Notes: generated by a model not told the origin, from the letters alone. Counted from the stretch's first letter, positions 6,921 to 57,885 are shown. The stretch: 64,000 nt of DNA from Segatella copri (GCA_021615735.1 JAJWFY010000009.1:21527-85526); one strand, 5' to 3'. A program made the numbers and translations.

Positions 6921-6956
6921 AGTGTTGAGTGTTGAATGTTAAATGTTGAGTGTTAA
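6921..6956 (+). repeat. Heptad array AGTGTTG/AATGTTA x5
   Basis: It begins 2 nt after the stop codon at 6916-6918. TGA/TAA triplets occur at 6926, 6933, 6940, 6947 and 6954, covering all three frames. Confidence 0.85.
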
Positions 6957-6978
6957 ATTATTCATTCTTAAATAAAAA

Positions 6979-7737
6979 ATGAAGTACTTATATCGTCTGT
7001 ATCAACTTGTTATATGCTTGCCTATCCTGTTGGTAGCTAGCGTTTTAACCAGTTTAACTACTGTTTTGGGATGTATGCTGGGCAATGGCCATTTCTGGGG
7101 CTATTATCCCGGCAAGTATTGGGCTTGGCTTTGGGTCCGCATCCTCCTCCTGCCTGTAAAGGTGGAGGGACGTGAGCATCTCAAGAAGAACCAGAGTTAT
7201 GTTTTCGTGGCCAATCATCAGGGCGCTTTCGATATCTTCCTGATATACGGTTTTCTGGGCAGAAACTTCAAGTGGATGATGAAGAAGGGCTTGCGCAAAG
7301 TGCCTCTCATCGGTATCGCCTGTGAGTATGCGCACCACATCTTTGTAGACAAGAGCGGACCTTCTAAGATCCGTGCTTCTTATGACCGTGCTCGCGAGGT
7401 GCTTAAAGAGGGCATGTCGCTGGTGGTATTCCCAGAGGGTGCCCGTTCGTTTACGGGGCACATGGGTGTGTTCCGCCGCGGTGCTTTCATGCTTGCCGAT
7501 GAACTGCAGTTGCCGGTATGTCCGCTTACCATCAATGGCAGTTTTGATGTGAAGCCTCGCATGAAGGACATCTACTGGGCTTTCTGGCATCCTCTGAAGC
7601 TCACCATTCATGAGCCTATCGAGCCGATAGGCAAGGGAGCTGACAATATCAAGAACCAGATGAACAAGAGCTATGAGGCGATTATGAACGGGCTTGACAA
7701 GAAATATCAGGGTTTTGTAGAGAATCCGGACCAATAA
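6979..7737 (+). CDS. plsC: 1-acyl-sn-glycerol-3-phosphate acyltransferase
   Basis: The acyltransferase motifs are present: VANHQGAFDIF (HX4D) and VVFPEGARS. Confidence 0.85.
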   Translation: MKYLYRLYQLVICLPILLVASVLTSLTTVLGCMLGNGHFWGYYPGKYWAWLWVRILLLPVKVEGREHLKKNQSYVFVANHQGAFDIFLIYGFLGRNFKWMMKKGLRKVPLIGIACEYAHHIFVDKSGPSKIRASYDRAREVLKEGMSLVVFPEGARSFTGHMGVFRRGAFMLADELQLPVCPLTINGSFDVKPRMKDIYWAFWHPLKLTIHEPIEPIGKGADNIKNQMNKSYEAIMNGLDKKYQGFVENPDQ

Positions 7738-7773
7738 TTTCAGTTTTTTGCTTGTTATTTCAAAAATAAGTTG

Positions 7774-7781
7774 TAATTTTG
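7774..7781 (+). promoter_or_regulatory. -7 box for the GT2 gene
   Basis: TAATTTTG, 51 nt before the ATG at 7832. Confidence 0.55.
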
Positions 7782-7831
7782 CATCTGTATTACATTATAT
7801 AGAATCAGAATCATTAAAATTATAAGAAGTT

Positions 7832-8572
7832 ATGAGTGATAGCATAGTAATCATTCCTACATATAATGAGAAGGAAAACATCGAGAAAATCATCCGTGCT
7901 GTCTTCGGTCTCGAAAAGCAGTTTGATATCCTCGTTATCGATGACGGAAGTCCTGATGGTACTGCTGCCATTGTTAAGGGCTTGATGGCTAATGAGTTTG
8001 CCGGTCGTCTGCATATCCTGGAGCGTTCGGGTAAACTCGGTTTGGGTACAGCCTATATCATGGGCTTCAAATGGTCATTGAAGCAGGGCTATGACTTCAT
8101 CTTCGAGATGGATGCCGACTTCAGTCATGATCCTAATGATTTGCCTCGTCTCTATGCGGCAACTCACGATGAGGGCTATGATGTGGCTGTAGGCTCAAGA
8201 TATATTTCGGGTGTTAACGTGGTCAACTGGCCTATCGGACGCGTATTGATGAGCTATTTCGCTTCTAAATACGTACGTATCGTAACCGGATTTAAGGTGA
8301 ATGATACCACAGCTGGATTCGTCTGCTACCGACGTAAGGTATTGGAAACCATAGATTTGGATGCTATCCGCTTCAAGGGCTATGCTTTCCAGATAGAGAT
8401 GAAATATACGGCTCATCGAATAGGTTTCAAGATCAAGGAGGTGCCTGTCATCTTTGTTAACCGTCGTGAAGGTGTGAGCAAGATGAGTGGTGGCATCTTT
8501 GGTGAGGCTTTCTTTGGCGTGATGCGACTGCGCCTGGATGGCTGGTTCAAGAAATATCCGAAGAAGGATTAA
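7832..8572 (+). CDS. GT2 polyprenol-phosphate mannosyl/glycosyl-transferase
   Basis: IVIIPTYNEKENI..LVIDDGSPDGT..EMDADFSHDP is the typical dolichyl/polyprenyl-phosphate mannose synthase pattern. Confidence 0.8.
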   Translation: MSDSIVIIPTYNEKENIEKIIRAVFGLEKQFDILVIDDGSPDGTAAIVKGLMANEFAGRLHILERSGKLGLGTAYIMGFKWSLKQGYDFIFEMDADFSHDPNDLPRLYAATHDEGYDVAVGSRYISGVNVVNWPIGRVLMSYFASKYVRIVTGFKVNDTTAGFVCYRRKVLETIDLDAIRFKGYAFQIEMKYTAHRIGFKIKEVPVIFVNRREGVSKMSGGIFGEAFFGVMRLRLDGWFKKYPKKD

Positions 8573-8621
8573 TACTCTGTAATCACTACTCAGTAATCAG
8601 TAATCACTAATCAGTACTTGG
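8573..8621 (+). repeat. Heptad array TAATCAC/TAATCAG/TACTCAG x7
   Basis: Exactly 49 nt (7x7) fill the whole gap between the GT2 stop (8572) and the mfd ATG (8622). Confidence 0.85.
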
Positions 8622-12035: not shown

Positions 12036-12185
12036 TCTGTGTCTACAGTCTATGGGTAAAATCCTGTATCAATTGTGGGAGTAGACAATAAAACAGACTG
12101 TTGATTTATACTGAAAGGTTATAAATCAGACAACGTTACATGATGATATGTCAACTTTACATGATGATATGTTTCAGTTTAGTGT

Positions 12186-12292
12186 ATAAAAAAAACATTG
12201 GAATCTCAATATCACTATTGAACTCCAATGTTTTATTTTTTTGTATAAGTAAAAGATGATGATAAGCGTTTCACAACGCATTTTGAATTTTT
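12186..12292 (-). ncRNA. Candidate small RNA (~105 nt), unclassified
   Basis: It is bounded by the orphan -7 box at 12299-12306 and the terminator at 12192-12234. It contains an internal hairpin gcgtt-GTGA-aacgc. No credible ORF is present. Confidence 0.3.
12192..12234. terminator. Bidirectional intrinsic terminator (mfd on +, orphan transcript on -)
   Basis: The hairpin is aaaacattgga..tcaata-gtga-tattga..tccaatgtttt. It is preceded by an A8 run and followed by a T-rich run. Confidence 0.6.
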
Positions 12293-12298
12293 CTGTTG

Positions 12299-12306: not shown

Positions 12307-12498
12307 CTGTTTTTTATTATAATATAGGGGGTAATATTTGGTATTTTATGGGGTAATATTTGATTAAGTTTATAAAAATAGCACTGAAAATACACTTATA
12401 TAACAAATAATACCTGTAGAATGAACTATTTTATTGGATAAAAATAAAAAAATAGTGGAAAAACAGATAAAAAAGTTTTTTATTTCATTTTTTATTTG

Positions 12499-12506: not shown

Positions 12507-12542
12507 TTCAGGCATACAACAATTTTAAACATATATATAGAC

Positions 12543-13904
12543 ATGAGACAGAAAAAGTACATCTTAAGCGAGCAGGAACTTCCTACTCAGTGGTACAACA
12601 TTCAGGCAGATATGCCTAACAAGCCATTGCCACCGTTGAACCCTCAGACTCATCAGCCAATGAATGCTGATGACTTGTCACACGTATTTAATAAGGAGTG
12701 CTCAAAGCAGGAACTTGATACAGAGCATGCCTGGATTGATATTCCAGAAGATGTGTTGGAGAAGTACACCTTCTACCGTTCAACACCTCTTGTACGTGCT
12801 TACGCCCTTGAGGAGGCACTTGGTACGCCAGCGCATATCTACTTCAAGAATGAGAGTACCAACCCGTTAGGTTCTCATAAAATCAATTCTGCTATTCCTC
12901 AGTGCTACTATTGTAAGCAGGAGGGTGATACCAATGTCACAACAGAGACTGGTGCAGGTCAGTGGGGTGCAGCCCTTTCTTATGCAGCTAAGCTCTACGG
13001 TTTGGAGGCTGCGGTTTATCAGGTAAAGATTACCATGCAGCAGAAACCATACCGTTCTAGCATCATGCGTACGTTTGGAGCCACTGTAGAGGGTTCTCCT
13101 TCTATGAGTACACGTGCTGGTAAGAATATCATTACACGCGATCCTCATCATCCTGGTTCGCTCGGTACAGCCATCAGTGAGGCTGTTGAGTTGGCTACAA
13201 CCACACCGGGCTGTAAGTATACGCTGGGTTCTGTGCTCAATCATGTGGCACTTCACCAGACCATTATCGGTCTTGAGGCAGAGAAGCAGATGGCGATGGC
13301 AGGTGAGTATCCTGATCAGGTGATTGCTTGTTTCGGTGGCGGTAGTAACTTCGGTGGTATTGCCTTCCCATTCCTCCGTCATAACTTTACTGGCGAGCGC
13401 CATACTGAATTTATTGCTGCAGAACCAGAGAGCTGTCCTAAGCTGACTCGCGGTAAATTTGAGTACGATTTCGGTGATGAAGCAGGTTATACTCCATTGC
13501 TGCCAATGTTTACTCTGGGTCATGATTTCAAGCCTGCCAACATTCATGCCGGTGGTCTGCGTTATCATGGTGCGGGTATGATTATCTCACAGCTTCTGAA
13601 GGATGGTTATCTGCATGGTGTAGATATCCCACAGTTGGAGTCATTCAAGGCGGGTATGCTCTTCGCTCAAACTGAGGGTATTATCCCTGCCCCAGAGAGC
13701 TGTCATGCGATTGCAGCCACTATTCGTGAGGCTCAGAAGGCTAAGGAAGAGGGCAAGGAGAAGGTTATCCTGTTCTGTCTCTCAGGTCATGGTCTTATCG
13801 ATATGCCGTCTTACGATAGCTATATTAATGGCGATTTGCACGATTATTCTGTTAGTGATGAAGAAATCCAGCAGTTCCTCAAGGATGTGCCAAAGGTTGA
13901 GTAA
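12543..13904 (+). CDS. TrpB2-like PLP-dependent tryptophan synthase beta-chain homologue (stand-alone)
   Basis: The motifs are FKNESTNPLGSHKINSA (PLP lysine context), ETGAGQWGAA, CFGGGSNFGG and the long TrpB2-type N-terminal extension. The ATG at 12543 lies 37 nt after a -7 box. Confidence 0.85.
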   Translation: MRQKKYILSEQELPTQWYNIQADMPNKPLPPLNPQTHQPMNADDLSHVFNKECSKQELDTEHAWIDIPEDVLEKYTFYRSTPLVRAYALEEALGTPAHIYFKNESTNPLGSHKINSAIPQCYYCKQEGDTNVTTETGAGQWGAALSYAAKLYGLEAAVYQVKITMQQKPYRSSIMRTFGATVEGSPSMSTRAGKNIITRDPHHPGSLGTAISEAVELATTTPGCKYTLGSVLNHVALHQTIIGLEAEKQMAMAGEYPDQVIACFGGGSNFGGIAFPFLRHNFTGERHTEFIAAEPESCPKLTRGKFEYDFGDEAGYTPLLPMFTLGHDFKPANIHAGGLRYHGAGMIISQLLKDGYLHGVDIPQLESFKAGMLFAQTEGIIPAPESCHAIAATIREAQKAKEEGKEKVILFCLSGHGLIDMPSYDSYINGDLHDYSVSDEEIQQFLKDVPKVE

Positions 13905-13946
13905 TAGTTAATAGTTTATAGTTAATAGTTTATAGCAAACAGTTGA
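13905..13946 (+). repeat. Heptad array TAGTTAA/TAGTTTA x5-6
   Basis: It starts at the nucleotide after the trpB2-like stop codon. Confidence 0.85.
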
Positions 13947-13995: not shown

Positions 13996-14027
13996 AGCCA
14001 GGCTGCGAAAAGCAACCTGGCTTTTTA
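13996..14027 (+). terminator. Intrinsic terminator of the trpB2-like gene
   Basis: Stem agccagg/cctggct followed by TTTTT. Confidence 0.6.
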
Positions 14028-14089
14028 TTTAGAGATTCTATTTCTTTTATTTAGAGATTCTATTCTCAGTTCGAGACTTCTATCTTTCA

Positions 14090-21872: not shown

Positions 21873-22111
21873 AAAGAAAGAGGGTGTGTCATAAGTTTAT
21901 GATTCACCCTCTTCTTGTTGTTGGATGAGATAGGATATGTTGTTGGATGAGATAGGATATGTTGTTGGAAGAGATAGGATATGTTGTTGGAAGAGATAGG
22001 ATATGTTATTGAGACAGTCAGTATCTTCGGCCGCACAACAGCTGATGTGCATGCGTTGCTCAACTGTTATGCGCCAACTATTATCCAGACTTATGACACA
22101 CCCTCTTCTTT
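21873..22111. repeat. Three copies of a ~20-bp word AAGA(A)GAGGGTGTGTCATAAG bracketing the tandem array
   Basis: Copy 1 is 21873-21895 (+). Copy 2 is 21897-21916 (inverted and imperfect), forming a local hairpin with copy 1. Copy 3 is 22090-22111 (inverted), matching the copy-1 core at 17 of 17 positions. Confidence 0.85.
21917..22012 (+). repeat. 22-bp tandem repeat x4 plus a partial unit
   Basis: GTTGTTGGATGAGATAGGATAT x2, then GTTGTTGGAAGAGATAGGATAT x2, then GTTATTGAG. Confidence 0.9.
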
Positions 22112-23739: not shown

Positions 23740-23877
23740 CGCTTTTTTCCTGAAACCACCAAATATTTCTTCTTCTTTTTAAGAAATATTTTGGAAAAGA
23801 GCGAGTTATTCATTCATAAATTGTTTTTGAACGGATGGAAGTCAATACTTTTTGTTTTGCCACTCACCCCAGTTTTA

Positions 23878-24088
23878 CCCCACACGCCCTGAAAGGGCAG
23901 AAGCTCCTAGCCCAGGGCACCGCCCTGGGGATATTGACAGTTCGCAAGACGCCCTGTAAGGGCAAAAGCTTTAAAAACATTCGGGTTCAATGAAAGCTTT
24001 TGCCCTTACAGGGCGACAGGTTTGTGCCCGTAATTACCCAGGGCGATGCCCTGAGCTAGGAGCTTCTGCCCTTTCAGGGCGTGTGGGG
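23878..24088. repeat. 211-bp GC-rich nested palindrome (MITE/REP-like element or structured RNA)
   Basis: The outer arms 23878-23929 and 24037-24088 are complementary at 50 of 52 positions. The inner arms 23950-23972 and 23993-24015 are complementary at 23 of 23 positions. The loop is 20 nt. Each arm also has local hairpins (gccctgaaagggc, cccagggcaccgccctggg, gccctgtaagggc). Confidence 0.85.
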
Positions 24089-24125
24089 CAAATTTAGAAT
24101 GGCAATTAATTTTTCTTTTGTCATT

Positions 24126-35295: not shown

Positions 35296-37071
35296 ATGAA
35301 GAAGAAAATTCAGTTCAGTCTCGTTTATCGAGACATGTGGCAGAGCTCTGGTAAGTTCCAGCCACGCAAGGATCAGTTGGCTAAAATTGCCCCAGTTATC
35401 ATCGAAATGGGATGCTTTAGCCGTGTAGAGACTAACGGCGGTGCCTTCGAACAGGTTAACCTCCTGGCTGGTGAAAACCCTAACGATGCCGTACGCGCAT
35501 TCTGCAAACCTTTCAACGAGGTGGGTATCAAGACTCACATGCTCGACCGCGGATTGAACGCTCTTCGTATGTATCCTGTGCCTGATGACGTGCGCGCCCT
35601 TATGTATAAGGTAAAGGCTAAGCAGGGTACCAACATCACACGTATCTTCGACGGACTGAACGATGTGCGCAACATCATTCCTTCTATCAAGTGGGCTAAG
35701 GAGGGTGGCATGACTCCACAGTGTGCACTCTGTATCACCAACTCTCCTGTTCATACCCTGGAATATTACATGAACATCGCCGACCAGCTCATCGCTGCCG
35801 GTGCAGAGGAAATCTGTTTGAAGGATATGGCAGGTATCGGCCAGCCGGCATTCCTCGGCAAACTCACCAAGATGATTAAGGACAAGTATCCTGAGATCAT
35901 CATCCAGTATCACGGCCACTCAGGTCCTGGTCTCTCTATGGCTTCTATCCTCGAGGTCTGCAACAATGGTGCCGACATCATCGATACAGCCATCGAGCCA
36001 TTGTCATGGGGTAAGGTTCACCCAGACGTAATCTCAGTTATCAGCATGCTGAAGAACGAGGGCTTCGAGGTACCTGAAATCAACATGAGCGCTTATATGA
36101 AGGCTCGTGCTATGACTCAGGAGTTCATCGACGAGTGGCTCGGCTACTTCATCAACCCAGGTAACAAGATCATGTCTTCATTGTTGCTCGGTTGCGGTCT
36201 CCCTGGCGGTATGATGGGTTCTATGATGGCAGACCTCGGCGGTATGCGTCAGACCATCAACAACATTCGCAAGAAGAAGGGTGAGGAAGAGTTGTCTATG
36301 GACGACCTGCTCATCAAGCTCTTCGACGAGGTAGAGTATGTATGGCCACGCGTAGGTTATCCTCCATTGGTAACCCCATTCAGCCAGTATGTAAAGAACA
36401 TCTCACTGATGAACCTCCTCACCATGGAGCAGGGCAAGGGTCGCTTCGTAATGATGGACGACTCTATGTGGGGTATGATTCTCGGTAAGAGCGGTAAGAT
36501 TCCTGGAACTATCGACCCAGAACTCGTAGAGCTCGCCAAGAAGCAGGGCCGTGAGTTTACCGACGTAGATGCACACACATTGCTCACCAACGCCCTCGAC
36601 GACTTCAAGAAGGAGATGGACGAGAACGGCTGGGATTACGGTCAGGACGACGAGGAACTCTTCGAGCTCGCTATGCACCCAGAGCAGTATCGCAACTACA
36701 AGAGCGGACAGGCAAAGAAGAACTTCCTGGCCGACCTTCAGAAGGCAAAGGATGTCAAGCTCGGTACAACCCTTACTCCTGCACAGCTTGCAGAGTTCAA
36801 GCATGCCAAGGCAGATGCCATCGTGGCACCAGTAGCCGGCCAGCTCTTCTGGGAATTCCAGGGCGAGGGCGAGTGCCAGCCAGCTGTAGAGCCATACATC
36901 GGCAAGGAATATAAAGAAGGTGATGCCTTCTGCTATATCCAGGCTCCTTGGGGCGAGTTTGAAACCATCCCAGCTGCATTGGGCGGCAAGCTCGTAGAAA
37001 TCAATGCCAAGCAGGGCAGCAAGGTGCGCAAGGGCGATGTTATCGCTTACATCGAGCGAGAGGCTGAATAA
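35296..37071 (+). CDS. Oxaloacetate decarboxylase alpha / pyruvate carboxylase subunit-B-like carboxyltransferase with a C-terminal biotinyl-like domain lacking the biotinyl lysine
   Basis: The carboxyltransferase TIM-barrel motifs are VYRDMWQS (canonical TLRDxHQS), RIFDGLND, LKDMAGIG and QYHGHSGPG. The C-terminal domain is IVAPVAGQLF..GDAFCYIQAPWGEFETIPA..GDVIAYIE, with QAPWG where EAMKM is expected. Confidence 0.8.
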   Translation: MKKKIQFSLVYRDMWQSSGKFQPRKDQLAKIAPVIIEMGCFSRVETNGGAFEQVNLLAGENPNDAVRAFCKPFNEVGIKTHMLDRGLNALRMYPVPDDVRALMYKVKAKQGTNITRIFDGLNDVRNIIPSIKWAKEGGMTPQCALCITNSPVHTLEYYMNIADQLIAAGAEEICLKDMAGIGQPAFLGKLTKMIKDKYPEIIIQYHGHSGPGLSMASILEVCNNGADIIDTAIEPLSWGKVHPDVISVISMLKNEGFEVPEINMSAYMKARAMTQEFIDEWLGYFINPGNKIMSSLLLGCGLPGGMMGSMMADLGGMRQTINNIRKKKGEEELSMDDLLIKLFDEVEYVWPRVGYPPLVTPFSQYVKNISLMNLLTMEQGKGRFVMMDDSMWGMILGKSGKIPGTIDPELVELAKKQGREFTDVDAHTLLTNALDDFKKEMDENGWDYGQDDEELFELAMHPEQYRNYKSGQAKKNFLADLQKAKDVKLGTTLTPAQLAEFKHAKADAIVAPVAGQLFWEFQGEGECQPAVEPYIGKEYKEGDAFCYIQAPWGEFETIPAALGGKLVEINAKQGSKVRKGDVIAYIEREAE

Positions 37072-37185
37072 TGTTAAATGTTGAATGTTGAATGTTGAGT
37101 TGTCCCTTTCTGCAAAACAGCAAGGACACTTACGGCGCAAGCCCCATAATTCAACATTCAACATTCAACATTCAACATTTAATAT
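37072..37185. repeat. Composite element: TGTTGAA-type heptad arm, 48-nt core, inverted TTCAACA x4 arm
   Basis: The arms are 37072-37099 and 37150-37177, with 23 nt perfectly complementary. The core is 37100-37147. The element starts 1 nt after the stop codon at 37069-37071. Confidence 0.85.
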
Positions 37186-37192
37186 AAAAACG

Positions 37193-37729: not shown

Positions 37730-37745
37730 AATTCTAATTTATTGA

Positions 37746-40607
37746 ATGAGAAAACAATCGACGATAGCTATGCTGCTGCTCGCTGCCATCTCGTGTATGA
37801 TGGTGGCTAACCCAGGTACGCCCGATTCGAAAAAGAAAAAGAAGAAGGAGAAGACGGAAACCGTGGACAGCGTGGGTGACAGTGTGTTCGTAGACTCGCT
37901 GGGCAACGAAATAAAGCCCAAACTGAAACAGGCTGACGACACCACGCAGATGGACTCGCTGCAGAAAGCTATATGGAAACATAATAAAGTGGTGGATGAC
38001 AGTATCCGCCTCGACAGTATCGCCAGAAAGAAACAGGGTGGAGTAGACGCACCGGTTAACTATCAGGCGGACGATTCTCTCGTATACGATGCCAAGAACA
38101 AGGTGGCATATCTCTACGGAAACTCCAACGTGAAGTATACCAACATGGACCTCAGTTCCGACCGCATCTCCATGGATATGGACAAGAGCAACGTGAAGGC
38201 GATGGGTACACCCGACAGTACGGCGGAGGGAGGCATCAAGGGCAAACCTGTCTTCAAGATGGGTAGCGATATCTATGATACCGACACCATCAAATTCAAC
38301 TTCAAGAGCAAGAAGGCCCTTATTAATAATGTATATACAGAACAGCAAGACGGATTCCTGACCGGTATGAAGTCGAAACGCGACTCATCGGGAGTCATCT
38401 ATCTGCAGCACGGAAGGTATACCACCTGCGATGATCCGCATCCCGATTTCTACATCTCGCTCTCCCGAGCCAAGGTAAGGCCGGGCAAGGATGTGGTATT
38501 CGGACCAGCCTATCTCGTGGTGTGCGATGTGCCTATGCCGCTTGCCATCCCTTACGGCTTCTTCCCGTTCACCAAGAGCTACAGCAGCGGTTTCATCATG
38601 CCAACCTACGGCGATGAAACGGCACGAGGATTCTATCTCAGAGATGGCGGATATTATTTCGCCATGAACGATAAATGGGACCTGAAGCTGCTGGGCGAGA
38701 TTTATACCAAGGGATCGTGGGGACTCTCGGCAGCCAGCAACTACCGAAAGAGATACAAATACTCGGGTTCCTTCTTCTTCAGTTACCAGGATACGAAGAA
38801 CGGCGACAAGGGAATGCCAGACTTTACCGAGCAGGAGAGCTTCAAACTGCAATGGAGCCACCGCCAGGACAGCAAGGCAAACCCATATAGTTCGCTTTCG
38901 GCAAGTGTGAACTTCGCCACATCGAGCTACGAACGCAATAACCTCAACTCGCTCTACAATCCGCAGACGATGACGCAGAGTACGCGAACCTCTTCCGTAA
39001 GCTGGAGCACCAACTTCTCGAGCATCGGAATGTCGCTCAGCTCTACCGCCAACCTCTCGCAGAATATGCGCGATTCATCCATCGCCATGACGCTGCCCGA
39101 CCTGAACATCAGCATCTCCCGCTTCTATCCGTTCAGAAGAAAGAAGATGGTGGGCGATGAGAAATGGTACGAGAAGATAGCCATGAGCTATACGGGACAC
39201 ATCTCTAACAGCATCAATACCAAAGAGGATAAGCTGATGCACAGTTCACTCATCAAGGACTGGCGCAACGGATGGCAGCATCAGATACCGGTGAGCGCTA
39301 CATTCACGCTCTTCAAATATCTCAACGTGAACCCATCGTTCAATTTCACCGACCGTATGTATACCAACAAGGTGGAGAGATCATGGGATGAAGCCAGCCA
39401 AACGGAGAAATGTGATACCATCTACGGTTTCAACAACGTGTATAACTGGAACATGAGCGTAGGTCTCTCTACCAAACTCTATGGTTTCTACATACCAAGC
39501 CGCAAGCTCTTCGGAGATAAAATACAGGCTGTGCGCCACGTGTTTACGCCTACGGTGAGCTTCAGTTATGCCCCAGACTTCGGAGCTTCACGCTACGGCT
39601 ACTGGGACACCTACCAGAAGACCGATGCCGACGGAAACGTATCGCTGGTGAGCTACTCGAAGTATGCCAATGCCCTCTACGGTGCGCCTGGCAAGGGTAA
39701 GAGCGGTAATATCTCGTTTACCCTGGGCAACAACATCGAGATGAAGGTGAAGAGCGATAAGGACTCTACCGGATACAAGAAACTCAGTATCATCGATGCG
39801 TTCGACATCAATATGAGTTACAATACCGCAGCCAAGGTTCGCCCTTGGAGCGATATGAACATCAACCTCAGACTGAAATGGTGGAAGAACTATACCTTCA
39901 ACATGAACGCTGTGTTTGCCACCTATGCCTACGAGCTGGACGACCAGAACAATGTTTATGTGGGTACCCATACGGAGTGGGGCAAGGGCAGGTTCGGACG
40001 ATTCCAGGGTATGTCGCAGAACTTCTCGTTCACACTGAACCCGGAGAAGCTGAAGAAACTCTTTGGCGGGGGCGATGATGAGGACGACAAGAAGGACAGC
40101 CAGCGCAATGATGATGACGATGAAGGCCTGGATACCGACATCGAGAGCAACGTAGACGACAGCATGGAGAAGGGTAAGACGGCAGCCAAGAAGGGCGGCA
40201 AGGCTGAAACGGATTCAGATGGTTATATGGCGTTTAAGATGCCATGGTCGCTGACCTTCGGTTATGGTGTAACGATGCGCGAGGATACGCGAAGAGAGAA
40301 GTTCAATGAGAAGACGATGCGCTATGCATATAAGTTTACCCAGACTCTGAACATGAGTGGTAACGTAAGAATCAGTGATGGCTGGAACATCAGTTTCTCA
40401 TCCGGTTATGATTTTGACAACCACAAGATCAGTATGACCACCGCCAGTTTGGCTCGTGATCTTCACTGTTTTAACATGAGCTGTTCTGTGGTTCTCGCTC
40501 CATATACGAGCTACAACTTCACCTTCCGTTGTAACGCAGCCACCCTGACAGATGCGCTGAAATACGACAAGCGCAGCGGTTATTCGAACGCTGTACAATG
40601 GTACTAG
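37746..40607 (+). CDS. lptD: LptD-like LPS-assembly outer-membrane protein (Bacteroidetes type)
   Basis: 953 aa with a signal peptide. The OstA-like N-terminal segment is VNYQADDSLVYDAKNKVAYLYGNSNVKYTNMDLSSDRISMDMDKSNVKAMG, followed by a long beta-barrel. An acidic insert is present (GGGDDEDDKKDSQRNDDDDEGLD). Confidence 0.7.
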   Translation: MRKQSTIAMLLLAAISCMMVANPGTPDSKKKKKKEKTETVDSVGDSVFVDSLGNEIKPKLKQADDTTQMDSLQKAIWKHNKVVDDSIRLDSIARKKQGGVDAPVNYQADDSLVYDAKNKVAYLYGNSNVKYTNMDLSSDRISMDMDKSNVKAMGTPDSTAEGGIKGKPVFKMGSDIYDTDTIKFNFKSKKALINNVYTEQQDGFLTGMKSKRDSSGVIYLQHGRYTTCDDPHPDFYISLSRAKVRPGKDVVFGPAYLVVCDVPMPLAIPYGFFPFTKSYSSGFIMPTYGDETARGFYLRDGGYYFAMNDKWDLKLLGEIYTKGSWGLSAASNYRKRYKYSGSFFFSYQDTKNGDKGMPDFTEQESFKLQWSHRQDSKANPYSSLSASVNFATSSYERNNLNSLYNPQTMTQSTRTSSVSWSTNFSSIGMSLSSTANLSQNMRDSSIAMTLPDLNISISRFYPFRRKKMVGDEKWYEKIAMSYTGHISNSINTKEDKLMHSSLIKDWRNGWQHQIPVSATFTLFKYLNVNPSFNFTDRMYTNKVERSWDEASQTEKCDTIYGFNNVYNWNMSVGLSTKLYGFYIPSRKLFGDKIQAVRHVFTPTVSFSYAPDFGASRYGYWDTYQKTDADGNVSLVSYSKYANALYGAPGKGKSGNISFTLGNNIEMKVKSDKDSTGYKKLSIIDAFDINMSYNTAAKVRPWSDMNINLRLKWWKNYTFNMNAVFATYAYELDDQNNVYVGTHTEWGKGRFGRFQGMSQNFSFTLNPEKLKKLFGGGDDEDDKKDSQRNDDDDEGLDTDIESNVDDSMEKGKTAAKKGGKAETDSDGYMAFKMPWSLTFGYGVTMREDTRREKFNEKTMRYAYKFTQTLNMSGNVRISDGWNISFSSGYDFDNHKISMTTASLARDLHCFNMSCSVVLAPYTSYNFTFRCNAATLTDALKYDKRSGYSNAVQWY

Positions 40608-40642
40608 ATGATAGTTTATAGTTGAAAGTTTATAGTTAATAG
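40608..40642 (+). repeat. Heptad array (ATGATAG TTTATAG TTGAAAG TTTATAG TTAATAG)
   Basis: It starts directly after the lptD-like stop codon (40605-40607). Confidence 0.8.
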
Positions 40643-40656
40643 AGCTTTTCAGCTTA

Positions 40657-40713
40657 TAGATAAAACAAAAAAAACAGGCAAAATCATTTTGCCTGTTTTT
40701 TTTGTTTTATCTA
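40657..40713. terminator. Perfect 57-nt palindrome, bidirectional terminator (lptD-like on +, helicase on -)
   Basis: tagataaaacaaaaaaaacaggcaaaat-c-attttgcctgttttttttgttttatcta. The GC core is caggc/gcctg, with A8/T8 runs built into the stem. Confidence 0.65.
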
Positions 40714-40723
40714 TATTACTTTT

Positions 40724-42460: not shown

Positions 42461-42570
42461 TGTATTTAATTTATAGTTTATAATTTATAGTTTATAGCAT
42501 AAGCCACATTAAATCGCCTTCTTGCTAAACGGCGTAGCCGCTATAAACTATAAATTATTAACTAAATTTA
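42461..42570. repeat. Composite element: AGTTTAT/AATTTAT arm, 43-nt core, inverted ATAAACT arm
   Basis: It fills the whole gap between the PBP1A stop (42568-42570) and the helicase ATG (42460). 19 nt of the arms pair perfectly. The core is 42498-42540. Confidence 0.85.
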
Positions 42571-45117: not shown

Positions 45118-45144
45118 ATATGATGATATAATGATTTCGTTGTT

Positions 45145-45795
45145 TTACTCTTCGTTCTTCACTTCCTCTACATCCACATAAATCTCCTTTGAATCCTGTT
45201 TCTGCTGCTGGTTCTTCAGCCAGATTCTCTTGTTGTTGGAGACTTTAAAGGCGTTGAGAAGCTCTACTACTCCATAGATGAGCATACCCCAACCGATGAT
45301 GAAAAGAGGGGCAGAGGCGATGGCTGAAGGCTTGATGATGGCGAGCAGACCCAGCAGAAGAAGGGCTGAAGGGAAGAGCCAGAAGAGAATGCCTACGCGA
45401 CCCATCTTAGCTGCTGAAGCCAGGTTGACAAACTGGGTCAGAGCGCCCAAAATCAGGATGAACGCCAGGATGAACATCAGCCAGGCGATAAACACCTGAG
45501 GCATCAGGGCAAGCAGCAATCCCAGGATAAGACTGCCTACGCTCACAAGCGGGAATTTAGGCATCATGCCCATGATAGGCTTACCATTGGAATCAGACAG
45601 AATCTGGCCCTGCATCTTCTCTGCATTGCGTTTGGCTGCCCAATAACTGGCAAGGGAGATGACACCTGAAAGGAAAAACAAAACACCGATGGCGATGGTT
45701 ATCCAGGTGACGGTCTGCTCACGATATTGGATGAGCAGGACTCCTACGATGATGGCGCATACTGCGCGGAATATTGAACTGTGAATTACCTTCAT
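45145..45795 (-). CDS. DUF308/HdeD-like membrane protein
   Basis: It has six hydrophobic helices with a repeated G..I..G...L pattern. I chose the ATG at 45795 (MKVIHSS), 28 nt after the -7 box at 45823-45830. It is probably the first gene of an operon with PBP1A and the helicase. Confidence 0.6.
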   Translation of the reverse strand: MKVIHSSIFRAVCAIIVGVLLIQYREQTVTWITIAIGVLFFLSGVISLASYWAAKRNAEKMQGQILSDSNGKPIMGMMPKFPLVSVGSLILGLLLALMPQVFIAWLMFILAFILILGALTQFVNLASAAKMGRVGILFWLFPSALLLLGLLAIIKPSAIASAPLFIIGWGMLIYGVVELLNAFKVSNNKRIWLKNQQQKQDSKEIYVDVEEVKNEE

Positions 45796-45822
45796 ACTAA
45801 AACTGATTTTGTTATTTCGGGG

Positions 45823-45830
45823 CAAAGTTA
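45823..45830 (-). promoter_or_regulatory. -7 box for the DUF308-PBP1A-helicase operon
   Basis: TAACTTTGCC on the minus strand, 28 nt before the ATG at 45795. I see no box in front of PBP1A or the helicase. Confidence 0.55.
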
Positions 45831-45874
45831 CGAAAGAAATCCGAAACTAGCAAGAAGTTTTTTATATAAACTTA

Positions 45875-45927
45875 AATTATTGCTATATTTAACGCTAATT
45901 ATTGCTATATTTAACGCTAATTATTTG
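45875..45927 (+). repeat. 22-bp tandem repeat x2 plus a partial unit
   Basis: AATTATTGCTATATTTAACGCT x2, then AATTATTTG. Confidence 0.85.
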
Positions 45928-45947
45928 TTGGTCTCGATAGAAAGCCG

Positions 45948-45955
45948 TAATTTTG
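45948..45955 (+). promoter_or_regulatory. -7 box for the histidine phosphatase gene
   Basis: TAATTTTGTA, 123 nt before the ATG at 46078. Confidence 0.5.
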
Positions 45956-45988
45956 TAAGCAAAATCAGAATCATGATGTCTTGGAAAG

Positions 45989-46077
45989 AGACTTAGTGAA
46001 AGTAAAAACTATGTCTGGAGTATAGACTTAGGAAAAGTAAAAACTCATTTTTGATATAGACGGAAAAAGTAAAGACA
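45989..46077 (+). repeat. Three dispersed ~22-nt direct repeats in the 5' UTR of the histidine phosphatase gene
   Basis: agacttagtgaaagtaaaaact (45989-46010), agacttaggaaaagtaaaaact (46024-46045) and agacggaaaaagtaaagaca (46058-46077). The period is about 35 nt. Confidence 0.75.
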
Positions 46078-46584
46078 ATGACAAAATTATATTTGGTGCG
46101 CCATGGTGAAACGGTGGATAACAAGGCGCAAATTATGCAGGGACAAACACCGGGAAAACTCAATATGAAAGGTATTGAGCAGGCTGAGGAAGTGGCCAGG
46201 AAAATGGCGGGTACGCCTATCGATGTTTTCGTATCGAGCGATCTCTATCGCAGTATACAGACCTGTGAAATTATCGCCGGCTCGCATCCCGTTGTCACCA
46301 CTCCCTTGCTCAGAGAGCGCGATTGGGGCGATTTTACGGGTAAATTCATCCCTGACCTGCCGAAGGACCCAAAGGATTGGCCGGACAACATAGAGACGCT
46401 GGAAAAGATGAAATCAAGAGCCCAGAATTTCCTTACCTGGCTCAAGGTTACTTATCCTGACCAGACCGTTCTTGCTGTGGGGCATGGCATCATAAATAAG
46501 GCTATCCAGAGTGTTTATTATAAACGTCCGATGAACCAGATAGAGAAAATGGCGAATGCTGAGGTCAGAGTCCTTATTCTTTAA
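46078..46584 (+). CDS. Histidine phosphatase (phosphoglycerate mutase) family protein
   Basis: LYLVRHGETVDN is the RHG motif. SSDLYRSIQT and AVGHG follow. Confidence 0.85.
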   Translation: MTKLYLVRHGETVDNKAQIMQGQTPGKLNMKGIEQAEEVARKMAGTPIDVFVSSDLYRSIQTCEIIAGSHPVVTTPLLRERDWGDFTGKFIPDLPKDPKDWPDNIETLEKMKSRAQNFLTWLKVTYPDQTVLAVGHGIINKAIQSVYYKRPMNQIEKMANAEVRVLIL

Positions 46585-46617
46585 GTGAAGAGTGAAAAAT
46601 TCAATTGCTTCGCTAAT

Positions 46618-46684
46618 CATAAAGTTCAAAGTATCAAAAGTTCTAAGTATAATTTAAAGTATCAAAGAAAAAGTATCAAAGAAT
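46618..46684 (+). repeat. 14-nt (2x7) periodic array AAAGTAT CAAAGAA
   Basis: aaagttc aaagtat caaaagt tctaagt ataattt aaagtat caaagaa aaagtat caaagaa. It ends just before the SDR ATG at 46685. Confidence 0.7.
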
Positions 46685-47440
46685 ATGAATAAAATTGCTC
46701 TTATTACAGGCGCAACAAGCGGTATTGGCGAAGGTTGTGCACGTCGTTTTGCCCGTGGCGGCTATAACCTGATTCTTACAGGTAGAAACACGGGAAAGTT
46801 GGAAATCCTGAAGAAAGAACTCGAGGCTGAGGGCGTTGAGGTGCTTGCCTTGGCTTTCGATGTGCGTAACCGTGAAGCTGCCAAGAAAGCGGTGGATTAC
46901 ATCCCTGAGGAGTGGCGCAATGTGGATGTGCTTATCAATAATGCGGGACTCGCACGTGGATTGGAACCTGAATATGAGGGCGATTTTGAAGATTGGGATC
47001 AGATGATTGATACCAATATTAAGGGCCTTTTAACCATGACTCGCCTGATTGTACCTGGTATGGTGGAGCGTAATCATGGTCATGTAATCAATATAGGTAG
47101 TGTGGCGGGTGATGCTGCTTATGCGGGAGGTAATGTATATTGTGCTACCAAAGCGGCTGTAAAGGCTATTACAGACGGCTTGCGCATTGATGTGGCACAT
47201 ACGAAAGTGCGTGTTACCAATGTGAAACCGGGTTTGGTTGAAACCAACTTCTCTAACATCCGTTTCCATGGTGACCAGAACCGCGCAGACAACGTTTACC
47301 GCGGCATAGAGCCTCTGAACGGCGATGACGTGGCTGATGTAGCCTTCTATGCTGCAAGTGCTCCAGAACACGTGCAAATAGCTGAGGTTCTGGTTCTTGC
47401 TACGCATCAGGCTAACGGAACCGTGATACACAGAAGCTAG
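46685..47440 (+). CDS. SDR-family NADP-dependent oxidoreductase (YdfG-like)
   Basis: ITGATSGIGEG is the TGxxxGxG motif. NNAG and the catalytic YCATKAAV (YxxxK) are present. Confidence 0.9.
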   Translation: MNKIALITGATSGIGEGCARRFARGGYNLILTGRNTGKLEILKKELEAEGVEVLALAFDVRNREAAKKAVDYIPEEWRNVDVLINNAGLARGLEPEYEGDFEDWDQMIDTNIKGLLTMTRLIVPGMVERNHGHVINIGSVAGDAAYAGGNVYCATKAAVKAITDGLRIDVAHTKVRVTNVKPGLVETNFSNIRFHGDQNRADNVYRGIEPLNGDDVADVAFYAASAPEHVQIAEVLVLATHQANGTVIHRS

Positions 47441-49293
<1,853 letters not shown>

Positions 49294-49891: not shown

Positions 49892-50764
49892 ATGAATATA
49901 TTAGTAACAGGCGCTAATGGTCAATTGGGACATGAAATGCAAATCTGTGCCCAAAAAAGCAATCACAAGTTTGTCTTCACCGATGTGGCTGAAGGCTATG
50001 AAAAACTGGATATCACCAATCTTGACGCTATCCGAGAAAAGGTGAGGGAGAATGATATTCAGGTAATTGTTAACTGCGCTGCTTATACCAACGTAGATAA
50101 GGCTGAAACAGATTACGATCTGGCTAATCTGCTCAACAATACTGCTGCGGGAAATTTGGCACAGGCTATGAAGGAGGTAGATGGTACTTTGATTCATGTA
50201 TCTACCGACTATGTTTTTCAGGGCGACAAGAATATACCTTGCCGTGAAGATTGGGAAACGAATCCTTTGGGGGTATATGGTAAAACGAAACTTGCAGGCG
50301 AAAAGAGTATTGAAGCTACTGGATGCAAGCATATCATCATCCGTACAGCATGGCTCTACTCGCAGTGGGGTAAGAACTTCGTGAAGACCATGCAGAGTCT
50401 CACGGCAAGCCATGACACCCTAAAGGTGGTCTTCGATCAGGTGGGTACTCCAACTTACGCTGGCGACCTGGCTGCTGTCATCTCACATATCATCGAAACT
50501 GACCAGTTGGATAAGACGGGCATCTACCACTTCTCTAATGAGGGTGTCTGCTCTTGGTTTGATTTCGCTAAGATTATCTGCGAACTGAGCGGAAATACTT
50601 GCGATATACAGCCTTGCTACAGCGAGGAGTTCCCAAGCCCAGTGAAGCGTCCTCACTTCTCTGTACTTGACAAGAGTAAGCTGAAGCAGACTTTCGGATT
50701 CAAGGTGCCATACTGGACTGACAGTTTGAAGAAGTGCATCGCTGAATTGGCGGCAGCAAAATAA
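49892..50764 (+). CDS. rfbD: dTDP-4-dehydrorhamnose reductase
   Basis: MNILVTGANGQLG, NCAAYTNVDKAE, STDYVF and YGKTKLAGE form the RmlD pattern. Confidence 0.9.
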   Translation: MNILVTGANGQLGHEMQICAQKSNHKFVFTDVAEGYEKLDITNLDAIREKVRENDIQVIVNCAAYTNVDKAETDYDLANLLNNTAAGNLAQAMKEVDGTLIHVSTDYVFQGDKNIPCREDWETNPLGVYGKTKLAGEKSIEATGCKHIIIRTAWLYSQWGKNFVKTMQSLTASHDTLKVVFDQVGTPTYAGDLAAVISHIIETDQLDKTGIYHFSNEGVCSWFDFAKIICELSGNTCDIQPCYSEEFPSPVKRPHFSVLDKSKLKQTFGFKVPYWTDSLKKCIAELAAAK

Positions 50765-50790
50765 TTATTAATTATAAATTATTAATTGAA
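50765..50790 (+). repeat. Heptad array TTATTAA/TTATAAA x3
   Basis: It fills the rfbD-rfbB gap, from the stop at 50764 to the ATG at 50791. Confidence 0.7.
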
Positions 50791-51924: not shown

Positions 51925-52020
51925 TAGCTTTTGGAGTAATCGGAACATGTTTTTATTGTAACCGGTGCATGTCTCTATTGTAACCGGTGCAAGAGATTCT
52001 GTTTTATATATTGAATCAGG

Positions 52021-53154: not shown

Positions 53155-53172
53155 AATAATAAAATCGACAAA

Positions 53173-54348: not shown

Positions 54349-54406
54349 TAATAATGCTCTTTATGTAGTTTGATAATGCTCTTTAAAGTGTTAATGAAAA
54401 AGTAGA

Positions 54407-56149: not shown

Positions 56150-56255
56150 CATCTGATTTTAAGCGTAAACGCGCTCTTTGTGTAAAATACATGAAAAGAG
56201 TTTTCGTAAATGTCAATTATTTGCGAAAACTCTTTGTCGTATCTATAATTTGCTG

Positions 56256-56263
56256 TATCTTTG
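56256..56263 (+). promoter_or_regulatory. -7 box for the GNAT/CN-hydrolase gene
   Basis: TATCTTTGCAC, 37 nt before the ATG at 56300. Confidence 0.6.
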
Positions 56264-56299
56264 CACCCGGATTTAGATAATAATAAAAATACAGTTGTT

Positions 56300-57829
56300 A
56301 TGGAACCAACTCGAAAAATCGAAAAGGTAGGCATGCGCAACCTCCGTATGGAGGATTATGATCAGCTTGCCAAGTCATTTAGGCGTATTTACGCAGACTC
56401 AGATGTATTCTGGACAAAAGAACAGATTAAGAAACTCATTACTATCTTCCCTGAGGGACAGGTGGTTATTATCGTTGATGATAAGATTGTGGGCTGTGCG
56501 CTCTCTATCATCGTCAATTATAATATGGTGAAGGGTGATCATACCTATGCTCAGGTTACGGGTAATGAAACCTTCAATACCCACGATCCTAATGGAAATA
56601 TCCTTTACGGCATCGAGGTGTTTATCCACCCAGACTATCGTGGCTTGCGATTGGCTCGCCGTATGTATGAGTATCGCAAGGAACTCTGCGAGAAGCTCAA
56701 CTTGAAGGCTATCATGTTTGGCGGTCGTATACCAAACTATCACAAGTATGCCGATAAGATGCGCCCTAAGGAGTATATTGAACATGTAAGAAACCGTGAA
56801 ATCTATGACCCGGTTCTTACCTTCCAGCTTTCCAATGATTTCCACGTGCGCCGCGTAATCCGCAACTATCTTCCTAGCGATGAGGAGAGCGAACACTGCG
56901 CCACCCTCTTGCAGTGGGATAACATCTATTATCAGCCACCTACGGATTCTTATGTAGATAGAAAGCCAACCGTGCGAATCGGATTGGTACAGTGGCAGAT
57001 GCGCCCATACGCTTCGGTGGATGACCTCTTTGAGCAGGTTGAGTTCTTCGTTGATTCCGTGAGCGATTACAAGAGCGACTTTATCCTCTTCCCTGAGTAT
57101 TTCAATGCGCCTTTGATGGCTCGTTTCAACGACTTGGGTGAGGCGCAGAGTATCCGAAAGATGGCGCAGTATACCGAAGAAATCCGTGACCGTTTCCGCG
57201 AGTTGGCCATCAGTTACAACATCAATATCATCACGGGTAGTATGCCTTATCTCAAGGACGATTCCCTCTATAACGTGGGTTTCCTCTGCCGCAGAGATGG
57301 TAGCGTGGATATGTACGAGAAGATTCATGTTACACCAGATGAGCAGAAGTGCTGGGGATTGAGTGGTGGTAGCCATATCCAGACCTTCGATACCGATTGC
57401 GGTAAGATTGGTATCGTCATCTGCTATGATGTGGAGTTCCCTGAGTTGTCAAGATTAATGGCTGAGGATGGCATGCAGATTCTCTTCGTGCCATTCATGA
57501 CCGATACCCAGAATGCTTACTCCCGAGTAAGAGTATGTGCCCAGGCGCGTGCTATCGAGAACGAGTGCTATGTAGCCATTGCGGGTAGTGTGGGCAACTT
57601 GCCACGTGTTCACAACATGGATATCCAGTATGCCCAGAGCGCCGTGTTCACCCCTTGCGACTTTGCTTTCCCTAACGATGGCAAGCGTTCAGAGGCAACA
57701 CCTAATACCGAGATGATTCTCGTATCAGATGTTGACCTGAATCTCTTGAATGAGCTTCATACCTACGGTGCTGTAAGAAATCTTCGCGACCGCCGCAAGG
57801 ATCTGTATGAATTGAAACAGAAGAAGTAA
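56300..57829 (+). CDS. Bifunctional GNAT N-acetyltransferase / carbon-nitrogen hydrolase (nitrilase superfamily)
   Basis: The GNAT block is IEVFIHPDYRGLRLARRMY. The CN-hydrolase E-K-C triad contexts are LFPEYF, YEKIHV and GIVICYDVEFPE. The ORF-track start at 56261 is a TTG inside the -7 box, so I chose the first ATG at 56300. Confidence 0.85.
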   Translation: MEPTRKIEKVGMRNLRMEDYDQLAKSFRRIYADSDVFWTKEQIKKLITIFPEGQVVIIVDDKIVGCALSIIVNYNMVKGDHTYAQVTGNETFNTHDPNGNILYGIEVFIHPDYRGLRLARRMYEYRKELCEKLNLKAIMFGGRIPNYHKYADKMRPKEYIEHVRNREIYDPVLTFQLSNDFHVRRVIRNYLPSDEESEHCATLLQWDNIYYQPPTDSYVDRKPTVRIGLVQWQMRPYASVDDLFEQVEFFVDSVSDYKSDFILFPEYFNAPLMARFNDLGEAQSIRKMAQYTEEIRDRFRELAISYNINIITGSMPYLKDDSLYNVGFLCRRDGSVDMYEKIHVTPDEQKCWGLSGGSHIQTFDTDCGKIGIVICYDVEFPELSRLMAEDGMQILFVPFMTDTQNAYSRVRVCAQARAIENECYVAIAGSVGNLPRVHNMDIQYAQSAVFTPCDFAFPNDGKRSEATPNTEMILVSDVDLNLLNELHTYGAVRNLRDRRKDLYELKQKK

Positions 57830-57843
57830 GTGAGGAAGGATAA

Positions 57844-57885
57844 TTCAACACTCAACATTCAATATTCAACATTTAACATTTAAAT
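57844..57885 (+). repeat. Heptad array TTCAACA-type x6 (reverse complement of the 6921 family)
   Basis: ttcaaca ctcaaca ttcaata ttcaaca tttaaca tttaaat. It ends 3 nt before the menC GTG start. Confidence 0.8.

Follow-up and report, generated by a model that had tools for sequence, protein, structure and literature searches.

Heptad arrays at ten intergenic junctions

We analysed a 64,000-nucleotide stretch of Segatella copri DNA (GCA_021615735.1 JAJWFY010000009.1:21527-85526; the window, taken at its full length), in which ten intergenic junctions carry tandem arrays of seven-nucleotide units (heptads), some of them paired as the arms of hairpins. Pfam domains found in the window, namely a hybrid two-component regulator, LptD_2 and DUF6377, indicate Bacteroidota; compared with Segatella (Prevotella) copri-complex assemblies, the LptD gene shows 99% identity. 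Over the ten junctions (J1 to J10) we found 13 period-7 arrays, laid out as follows.

6919..6956, + strand: J1, solo array of TGTTGAR units, 3' of the metallophosphoesterase stop (TGA, 6916-6918) and 5' of the acyltransferase start (6979); period 7 by Tandem Repeats Finder (TRF)
8573..8621, + strand: J2, solo TAATCAS array, taking up all 49 nt between the GT2 stop and the mfd ATG; TRF
13902..13946, + strand: J3, solo TAGTTWA array in a convergent gap, its first unit being the stop TAA (13902-13904); TRF start 13902
37069..37101, + strand: J4, left hairpin arm, TGTTGAA x4, overlapping the oadA stop TAA (37069-37071); inverted repeat I4, 94% complementary
37102..37147, + strand: J4, hairpin core, GC-rich, with GGAC...GGC-GCAA-GCC inside; related to the phage core
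37148..37186, + strand: J4, right hairpin arm, TTCAACA x4, ending a few nt before the ATG (37193) of an HD-domain gene
40605..40642, + strand: J5, solo TAGTTTA-type array opening with the lptD stop TAG (40605-40607); a canonical terminator palindrome follows (40655-40715)
42461..42498, - strand: J6, hairpin arm beside the start of pif1, of TAGTTTA type when read on the + strand; 96% complementary within inverted repeat I7
42499..42539, - strand: J6, hairpin core, whose sense (minus) strand reads GGCTACGCCGTTTAGCAAGA...; exact motif match
42540..42570, - strand: J6, hairpin arm with the PBP1A stop (42568-42570); from sequence reading and the inverted repeat
46585..46684, + strand: J7, spacer of mixed 7-, 14- and 16-nt periodicity, GTGAAGA units followed by AAAGTATCAAAGAA x2 up to the SDR ATG; TRF periods 14 and 16
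47438..47475, no strand assigned: J8, left hairpin arm (TAGTTWA) in a convergent gap, in register with the SDR stop TAG (47438-47440); inverted repeat I2, 35-nt arms, 89% complementary
47476..47514, no strand assigned: J8, hairpin core, GGCTGCGCCGTTGAGCAAGA...
47515..47549, no strand assigned: J8, right hairpin arm (TAAACTA type), holding the stop of the minus-strand DUF6377 gene (47539-47541)
50762..50790, + strand: J9, solo TTATTAA array with the rmlD stop TAA (50762-50764) at its head, occupying all of the gap before the rmlB ATG; TRF start 50762
57844..57885, + strand: J10, solo array in the TTCAACA orientation, 14 nt 3' of a stop and 3 nt 5' of the next start

These sites had been listed in an earlier sequence-only reading of the window. 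TRF recovered period 7 at essentially all of them, with arrays starting at 6920, 8579, 13902, 37070, 37149, 40611, 42470, 42541, 47438, 47530, 50762 and 57843, and the sequences read as that account had given them, including the four word families (TGTTGAA, TAGTTTA, TAATCAG and TTATTAA) and the stop triplets at 6926 (TGA), 6933 (TGA) and 6940 (TAA). At 46618-46684 the period by TRF is mainly 14-16, but the length of this site, too, differs among strains by 7 and 14 nt. Seven arrays do lie 0-2 nt 3' of a stop codon (6921, 8573, 13905, 37072, 40608, 47441 and 50765), with the correction that at 13902, 40605, 47438 and 50762 the array includes the gene's own in-register stop as its first unit and does not simply follow it. 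The minus-strand gene stops described inside two arms are likewise present, at 42568-42570 and 47539-47541.

When every 21 nt had to show at least 18 matches at lag 7, a criterion kept fixed throughout, nine period-7 arrays came out of the window's 9.4 kb of intergenic DNA. The sequence-only reading had proposed coding and shuffled controls, and neither produced an array: none was found in the 54.6 kb of coding DNA of the window, and none in 200 dinucleotide-preserving shuffles. Arrays of periods 5, 6 and 8-11 were also missing from the window by this criterion, and at most one period-7 array was found in 740 kb of open reading frame (ORF) sequence from the compared loci; L-numbers are used here as labels of host strains, relatives and phage contigs. 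The arrays are not assembly artefacts, because they recur in more than 20 independent assemblies, multi-megabase chromosome-scale records included. They are heptanucleotide simple-sequence repeats (SSRs) of the LSSR5-11 or STRR type: tandem, over-represented, polymorphic in unit steps and non-coding.

Unit steps, hairpins and a dispersed core

Orthologous junctions were compared in 20 further loci, obtained via exact-protein look-ups and spanning both halves of the window. All ten junctions vary among these ~20 S. copri strains: nine change their length, in multiples of 7 nt, and J6 varies through substitutions and element replacement. The gap measures 53, 60, 67 or 74 nt at J1 (~20 strains), 28 or 49 nt, i.e. 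three units apart, at J2, 75, 82 or 89 nt and also 85 nt at J3, 33 or 47 nt at J5, 79, 86 or 100 nt at J7, 95, 102, 109 or 225 nt at J8, 26 or 33 nt at J9, and 45, 52, 59, 66 or 73 nt at J10, where two strains have a GTGAAGA-type array instead. The 225-nt allele of J8 (L051) has an expanded left arm and a duplicated core and right arm, a tandem duplication inside a composite element. In phages, the arm length at one site ranges from 4 to 13 units. Such gain and loss of whole units, in arms and solo arrays, is the signature of replication slippage. The strain comparison suggested in the sequence-only reading revealed gain and loss both as unit steps and as whole elements.

Slippage from chance seeds might suffice to explain the arrays, as purely neutral heptanucleotide microsatellites of the LSSR5-11 class, with no element, dispersal or function. 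The clean 7-nt steps and the exclusion of coding DNA agree with this explanation, and so does the patchy distribution among 43 Prevotellaceae and Bacteroides loci, of which 27, one of them an 85%-identity relative, have no arrays. Polymerase slippage has also been proposed for the excess of heptamers, as cited in PMC4679880 and PMC4692102. Chance seeds, however, predict a new word at each site, yet in a 540-kb host census four word families accounted for nearly all of 22 distinct array sites. All four serve both as hairpin arms and as solo arrays. Other species with arrays use the words GAGTTAG, GATGAAG and AACACTA, and in some cases such an array occupies this very junction, 3' of the lptD stop.

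The hairpins add further structure. In the window there are three (37069-37186, 42461-42570 and 47438-47549), each composed of an array, a GC-rich core and an inverted array, with arms of 25-35 nt that are 89-96% complementary, cores of 39-50 nt and a whole length of ~95-125 nt. Their fold z-scores are between -5 and -10, J4 reaching -50 kcal/mol (z = -10). Heptad-armed hairpins were also found in L002, L016, L017, L019, L030 and L042. Arms built of tandem repeats are not limited to 7-nt units, because two hairpins of another Prevotella (L007, 3685-3787 and 7845-7946) have arms of a 9-nt repeat, GACAATAGA x3.

At orthologous sites with flanks 97-100% identical, some strains have the entire hairpin and others lack it. 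The J4 element is missing in four near-identical strains (L001, L040, L043 and L142), where the junction reads TAA-ATATAATAGAA-ATG, and is a TAGTTTA-armed element in L102 and L135; J4 therefore has three allelic states, TGTTGAA-type, TAGTTTA-type and empty. Alleles of J6, between pif1 and the PBP gene, are of the TAGTTTA type, of the TGTTAAG type (L048, L002), an unrelated GC-rich palindrome (L053) or nothing (L003). We found four further filled/empty pairs, with flanks 92-100% identical. Filled alleles have their last codon and stop recast in the register of the array, GAG TAA becoming GAA TAA TGTT... or GAA TAG TTAA.... The empty-allele spacers of L142, L125, L105 and L141 share AATAGAA(A)T shortly 5' of the downstream ATG, a motif that could be a translation-initiation context common in S. 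copri or else a site that the elements prefer as target.

The cores are related to one another. The sequence GGCTnCGCCGTT... is common to host cores, and in a scan of metagenome contigs the core GGCTNCGCCGTTNAGCAAGA occurred in at least six distinct S. copri-complex contexts, invariably between TAGTTTA-type arms. About a dozen further matches to the core motif, in GC-rich unrelated organisms, were set aside as chance. Two lineages have the core of one host site in opposite orientations, with the same arms and one shared flank.

A related core is abundant in phages. Three copies of TGTTGAA were found in 80 stretches of IMG/VR contigs, many of them on ~100-kb contigs with several arrays each; these stretches (729 kb, GC 0.47) hold 143 period-7 arrays, 109 of which have the TGTTGAA word. 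The layout of the phage hairpin is (TGTTGAA)n, a ~26-nt core GCCTnACGGACTCnAnGGCG-nnn-GCC and (TTCAACA)n, and we counted 48 such hairpin contexts. Phage and host cores share GGCTnCGCCGTTGAG and a mini-hairpin, GGC-N3-4-GCC, in which the stem is kept and the loop varies. The array-rich contigs encode tail, baseplate, tail-fibre, head-protease, clamp, ligase, ThyX, primase and ParA proteins, from which we conclude that they are tailed phages. PHROGs gave no matches on the first phage gene cluster, the phage nature being seen in a wider gene sample, and among GenBank phages there was no close relative of an array-rich phage contig, only a 34-nt array match. Matches of 3.4 copies of TAGTTTA in viral contigs were not used as evidence, for they fell in many unrelated AT-rich viruses, metagenome-assembled genomes of giant viruses included.

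Because the same core is present at many unlinked host sites, and a related multicopy core in ~100-kb tailed phages, this sequence was dispersed, not formed anew at each site. One GC-rich core at six or more host sites with a related form in the 48 phage contexts, entire 110-nt elements between identical flanks, and the bias in core orientation and avoidance of long divergent gaps described below are all at odds with purely neutral microsatellites, which we consider an unlikely explanation.

Several features of the phage loci stand apart from the hairpins. At L346 2747-3949 and in other array-rich phage loci the cargo is unusual, with a beta-ketoacyl synthase, LysR-type regulators, a reverse transcriptase and ParA; the last of these suggests a possible phage-plasmid lifestyle. 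Host and phage have a small palindrome, CCAGCGATnGAATCGCTGG, in common. It occurs in one strain (L040, ~12990-13090) as a ~150-nt insertion after the lptD terminator, is nested in some heptad-hairpin cores (phage hairpin loops of 72-78 nt), and replaces the heptad hairpin at an orthologous phage site (L308 and L302 versus L301 and L304).

Gene ends, transcription and competing explanations

The elements keep to gene ends. The 31 non-redundant phage hairpins divide into 19 in co-directional and 12 in convergent gaps; divergent gaps have none of them (P about 0.006 by gap length). Nor did the host census place any of its 19 array sites in a divergent gap (P about 0.004), and in the first locus set 16-18 arrays were co-directional, 7 convergent, 2 divergent and at most one coding. 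In 18 of the 19 co-directional phage cases the element starts -14 to +13 nt from the upstream stop, and in most it ends 36-82 nt before the next start. The orientation of the phage core relative to transcription is the same in 16 of 19 (p = 0.004), and readable host sites lean to the same orientation by about 6 to 2.

One explanation for this anchoring, raised in the sequence-only reading, is a three-frame stop buffer, i.e. arrays selected to stop read-through or frameshifted ribosomes at the end of the upstream gene. It would account for the seven window arrays just 3' of a stop, for gene stops in register with the array stops at 13902, 40605, 47438 and 50762 and in L102, and for the presence of a sense-strand stop in 18 of 20 listed arrays. 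That every frame has its stops, though, is a matter of arithmetic, because a 7-nt period repeats any stop-bearing unit. When 11 independent words from the window and relatives were letter-permuted, 73-100% of the permuted versions had a stop on at least one strand, and the joint probability of a stop in all 11 words was about 0.23; AT-rich intergenic heptamers, if tandem, would give a stop on a given strand in 55% of cases. One-strand-stop words in non-hairpin arrays are placed twice in sense and twice in antisense. Stops on the sense strand 3' of genes do not exceed composition. The stop buffer is therefore unsupported, because stop content fits AT-rich composition and there is no sense-strand bias. 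Furthermore, TTCAACA-sense arrays such as J10 have no stop in a perfect unit; one backup stop per frame suffices, yet arrays reach 13-18 units; close relatives have gaps of 3-23 nt with no array at the same junctions, those of sister strains and species measuring 3-17 nt; copy number drifts freely among strains; and the same arrays act as hairpin arms and sit directly 5' of start codons. We find the stop buffer scarcely credible. The in-register stop codons are better explained by a constraint on expansion, since a 7-nt unit adjoining a gene can expand harmlessly only from the stop codon or later. For annotators, three-frame stops are an automatic property of AT-rich 7-mers, with no adaptive story needed.

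Some solo arrays adjoin the downstream gene, ending 0-5 nt before its start codon at J2, J7, J9 and J10, at two L112 sites and at a phage gene in L346. Here the G-poor, unstructured arrays might act as leaders or spacers, landing pads for ribosomal protein S1 or cold-shock-type proteins. Shine-Dalgarno pairing is largely lacking in the phylum of the host, which would suit such a model. A role of this kind was proposed by MacGregor for TAACTGA repeats, with CspB binding one protein per heptamer (PMC4679880). Against a leader role, the convergent-gap arrays J3, J5 and J8 have no downstream start, phage hairpins are anchored at the upstream stop and stand well away from the next start, several unrelated words are used in both orientations, array length drifts among strains, and there are relatives that manage without arrays. 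As a general explanation the leader is distinctly unlikely, but for some solo arrays of host and phage it may hold. At the two L112 sites (~2860-2915 and ~4380-4425) a repeated module, AAAACTCCGAAGGAGTCnAAAATCTGTGAnAATCTGTGTAATCTGTGGGAAAA, consisting of a small hairpin and three AATCTGTG units, stands directly before the solo heptad array and ATG; it could be a repeated promoter or leader cassette.

Alternatively, the arrays might act at the level of DNA, as cooperative protein-binding sites or as cruciform palindromes in replication, recombination or packaging. For the former, a model is offered by the omega repressor of plasmid pSM19035, which binds heptad operators. The 7-bp periodicity in both direct and inverted arrangement fits a DNA-level element, the opposite core orientations at one site in two lineages are compatible with arm-mediated inversion, and the RNA-level test reported below did not reach significance. 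Set against this, at least four unrelated words would demand four separate proteins, the sites go with gene 3' ends and not with promoters, and core orientation follows transcription; a DNA-level role thus seems very improbable. Binding of the HutP type (UAG-N4) and omega-type heptad operators were rejected as general explanations on the same ground of at least four unrelated words. Telomere-like and CRISPR-like readings found no support.

We favour, with moderate confidence, the reading that the arrays are the heptanucleotide microsatellites of a family of palindromic intergenic elements in Segatella copri, some of its relatives and phages, and not a purpose-built stop buffer. The full element would be (heptad)n, a GC-rich core and an inverted (heptad)n, and solo arrays, which draw on the same few words, may be either decayed half-elements or local expansions. 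The elements are probably non-autonomous and similar to repetitive extragenic palindromic (REP) sequences and their hairpin-forming doublets (REPINs) or to MITEs (small transposable elements that have inverted repeats). Some enzyme would copy them; the mechanism may be one of the HUH type that leaves no target-site duplication, recombination, or local growth of palindromes. Their persistence at gene 3' ends would mean that in this position they do no harm or are of use. Our best guess at a function is that of a long stem-loop transcribed at the 3' end, which could act as an attenuator, a processing site or an mRNA-stabilising 3' structure. We liken this putative role to that of REP sequences and bacterial interspersed mosaic elements (BIMEs), ERIC and Correia elements because of the long AT-rich stems, the GC loop, the anchoring at gene ends and the polarity relative to transcription.

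Several observations weigh against this reading. In five filled/empty pairs we found no clean direct repeat, the residual spacer and last codons differing between alleles; a duplication of TA or TAA is possible at J4 and in the L116/L105 pair, where AT-rich flanks and rewritten spacers make the reading ambiguous. As there is no unambiguous target-site duplication, classical cut-and-paste transposition is not demonstrated. No transposase was identified, in an analysis that included no search aimed at a transposase gene flanked by these arms. In the L129/L132 pair the spacer of the empty allele is similar to a portion of one arm, which local amplification or deletion would explain no less well than insertion, as neutral expansion and contraction would have it. 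Arm length changes symmetrically in some alleles (L045) and on one side only in others (L046, L048). Compensatory one-unit indels in both arms (window versus L040), considered as proof of selection on the hairpin, were downgraded because other alleles alter one arm only. At the RNA level the signal is marginal: the sense fold is the more stable in 12 of 18 elements (p = 0.053), with 42 G.U pairs in sense and 36 in antisense. An intrinsic-terminator scan of 36900-48000 flagged the palindrome at 40662-40708 and no heptad hairpin, and the heptad stems, 25-35 bp and AT-rich, lack the GC stem and U-tract of a terminator, with no T-run after them. Finally, gene positions in the compared loci come from simple ORF picking.

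A bolder form of the proposal, which we hold to be improbable, is that heptad-armed hairpins are a functional class of gene-end signals of Segatella and its phages. Slippage in the arms would keep retuning the length of the stem and thereby read-through, processing or mRNA stability at hundreds of junctions, as a genome-wide 'rheostat' of operon polarity that is heritable yet quickly reversible. A dedicated factor of host or phage would recognise the core, with its two CCGTTRAG-like motifs and the GGC-NNNN-GCC mini-hairpin.

Segatella copri is among the most abundant and strain-diverse human gut bacteria, and its gene-regulatory signals are little known. If the window is typical, with about two arrays per 10 kb, strains would differ in length at a large number of sites, providing natural variable-number tandem-repeat markers. 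The elements also form a sequence link from uncultured ~100-kb phages to Segatella hosts, of use in phage-host assignment. Heptamer arrays at ORF ends are unexplained in Xanthomonas, Nostoc and Beggiatoaceae; with its core, orientation, presence/absence alleles and phage copies, the Segatella case makes the problem experimentally approachable.

Neighbouring repeats and known systems

Other repeats lie nearby. Directly after J5, between lptD and pif1, is a perfect 30-bp palindrome (40655-40715) with a GC-rich inner stem and T8/A8 runs, which looks like a canonical bidirectional intrinsic terminator. Six tandem arrays of 22-nt period (12325-12364, 14022-14065, 21915-22011, 45874-45926, 51952-51993 and 54349-54385) are all non-coding and unrelated in sequence, and may be a second family in which the period and not the sequence is conserved; at other periods of 16-33 the window has 0-2 tandem arrays each, except for period 21, a multiple of 7, with four. 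At 23874-24092 lies a large nested GC-rich palindrome, with 56-nt arms that are 95% complementary and inner 23-nt perfect arms. It looks like a separate MITE-like family, and a member of it replaces one arm and the core at the pif1/PBP junction of L053, giving a 277-nt allele. In one strain (L060, 14654-15877) an insertion sequence with a DDE transposase separates mfd from the gene of a PLP-dependent enzyme; other strains are without it. Rfam gave nothing at gathering threshold over the whole window, and a permissive scan of 36900-47700 gave sub-threshold microRNA-precursor matches on the long hairpins, which we took as noise. A search of the window for tRNA and tmRNA found none.

The sequence-only reading did not recognise the arrays as a described repeat class, which proved too strong, for intergenic heptamer arrays have been published in Xanthomonas and Nostoc (PMC4692102) and as TAACTGA repeats (PMC4679880). 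According to Rehm et al. 2015 (PMC4692102), the heptamer SSRs GGGAATC of Xanthomonas and GGGGAYT of Nostoc are about 90% intergenic. The Xanthomonas arrays lie a mean of 28 nt from the upstream ORF, far nearer than to the next ORF, and form 70-75 convergent array pairs per genome, potential stem-loops (PMC4692102). Heptamers of both genera occur on either strand, seldom between divergent genes, and vary in length and sequence among close relatives (PMC4692102). The Segatella arrays thus resemble them in being intergenic, placed at the end of the upstream ORF, rare in divergent gaps, paired in inverted orientation and variable. They differ in that the units are AT-rich, whereas those of Xanthomonas and Nostoc are G-rich and quadruplex-capable (PMC4692102), and in using at least four words and not one dominant word per genome. 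A conserved GC-rich core between paired arrays, presence/absence alleles and sharing with phages did not come up when that paper (PMC4692102) was searched by term.

Heptamers are the commonest class of long SSR, a finding of Mrazek cited in PMC4679880. The TAACTGA direct repeats described by MacGregor in 2015, in Beggiatoaceae, cyanobacteria and a few Bacteroidetes, have 2-6 copies or more, often lie a few nt 5' of start codons and contain stops, and a post-transcriptional role, as the S1 or cold-shock-type landing pad mentioned above, was proposed for them (PMC4679880). They are like the Segatella arrays in being intergenic heptamers with a stop-bearing unit. TAACTGA is a single word across phyla, mostly in one orientation before starts, with one indirect repeat reported (PMC4679880), whereas the Segatella arrays are stop-anchored, use several words and often form inverted pairs.

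Two further classes are close in unit length. Short tandem heptanucleotides in non-coding DNA, the STRR repeats, were reportedly found in cyanobacteria by Mazel in 1990, and the LSSR5-11 class is said to have been defined by Mrazek in 2007. Both are described as simple arrays; those of Segatella are also the arms of dispersed, stop-anchored hairpins.

Among the possibilities put forward in the sequence-only reading, that of the arms of a REP/MITE-like family is the best supported, given the inverted arms, the dispersed core and the presence/absence alleles. REP/BIME sequences and REPINs of Proteobacteria are extragenic palindromes at gene 3' ends, and their inverted pairs fold into a long hairpin. 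Their dispersal leaves no target-site duplications; they are transcribed, with the capacity to make the upstream mRNA more stable or to attenuate transcription. The Segatella elements, too, are extragenic, at gene 3' ends or between convergent genes. They do not have an inverted pair of conserved GC-rich 20-40-nt palindromes: the arms of a REPIN are the conserved GC-rich REP, whereas here the GC-rich part is single and forms the loop, in which the mini-stem (GGC-N3-4-GCC) has no more than 3 bp, and the arms consist of AT-rich microsatellites that vary. REPINs also have a RAYT transposase, and none is linked to the Segatella elements.

As in a MITE, terminal inverted repeats surround a short non-coding body within the size range of about 50-800 bp, and dispersed copies (at least six host sites and 48 phage contexts) show presence or absence at orthologous sites. 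A 2024 survey found MITEs common to prokaryotes and their viruses, host and phage having identical families and Prevotella phages being prominent (PMC11602168). The Segatella elements are similarly small, non-autonomous inverted-repeat intergenic elements found in both host and phage; they showed no clear target-site duplication or cognate transposase. BrickBuilt of Porphyromonas gingivalis is a Bacteroidales MITE with an internal tandem repeat (PMC4596501). In BrickBuilt this is an internal 23-nt minisatellite and the element lies 49-591 nt from coding sequences (PMC4596501), whereas in Segatella the 7-nt tandem repeat is itself the inverted arm and the element touches the stop codon. In the literature searched, the coverage of which is incomplete, we found no description of heptad-armed, core-bearing, stop-anchored hairpins in Segatella or Prevotella. 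What is new here is the combination: microsatellite arms, a conserved core, polarity relative to transcription, presence/absence alleles and sharing between host and phage.

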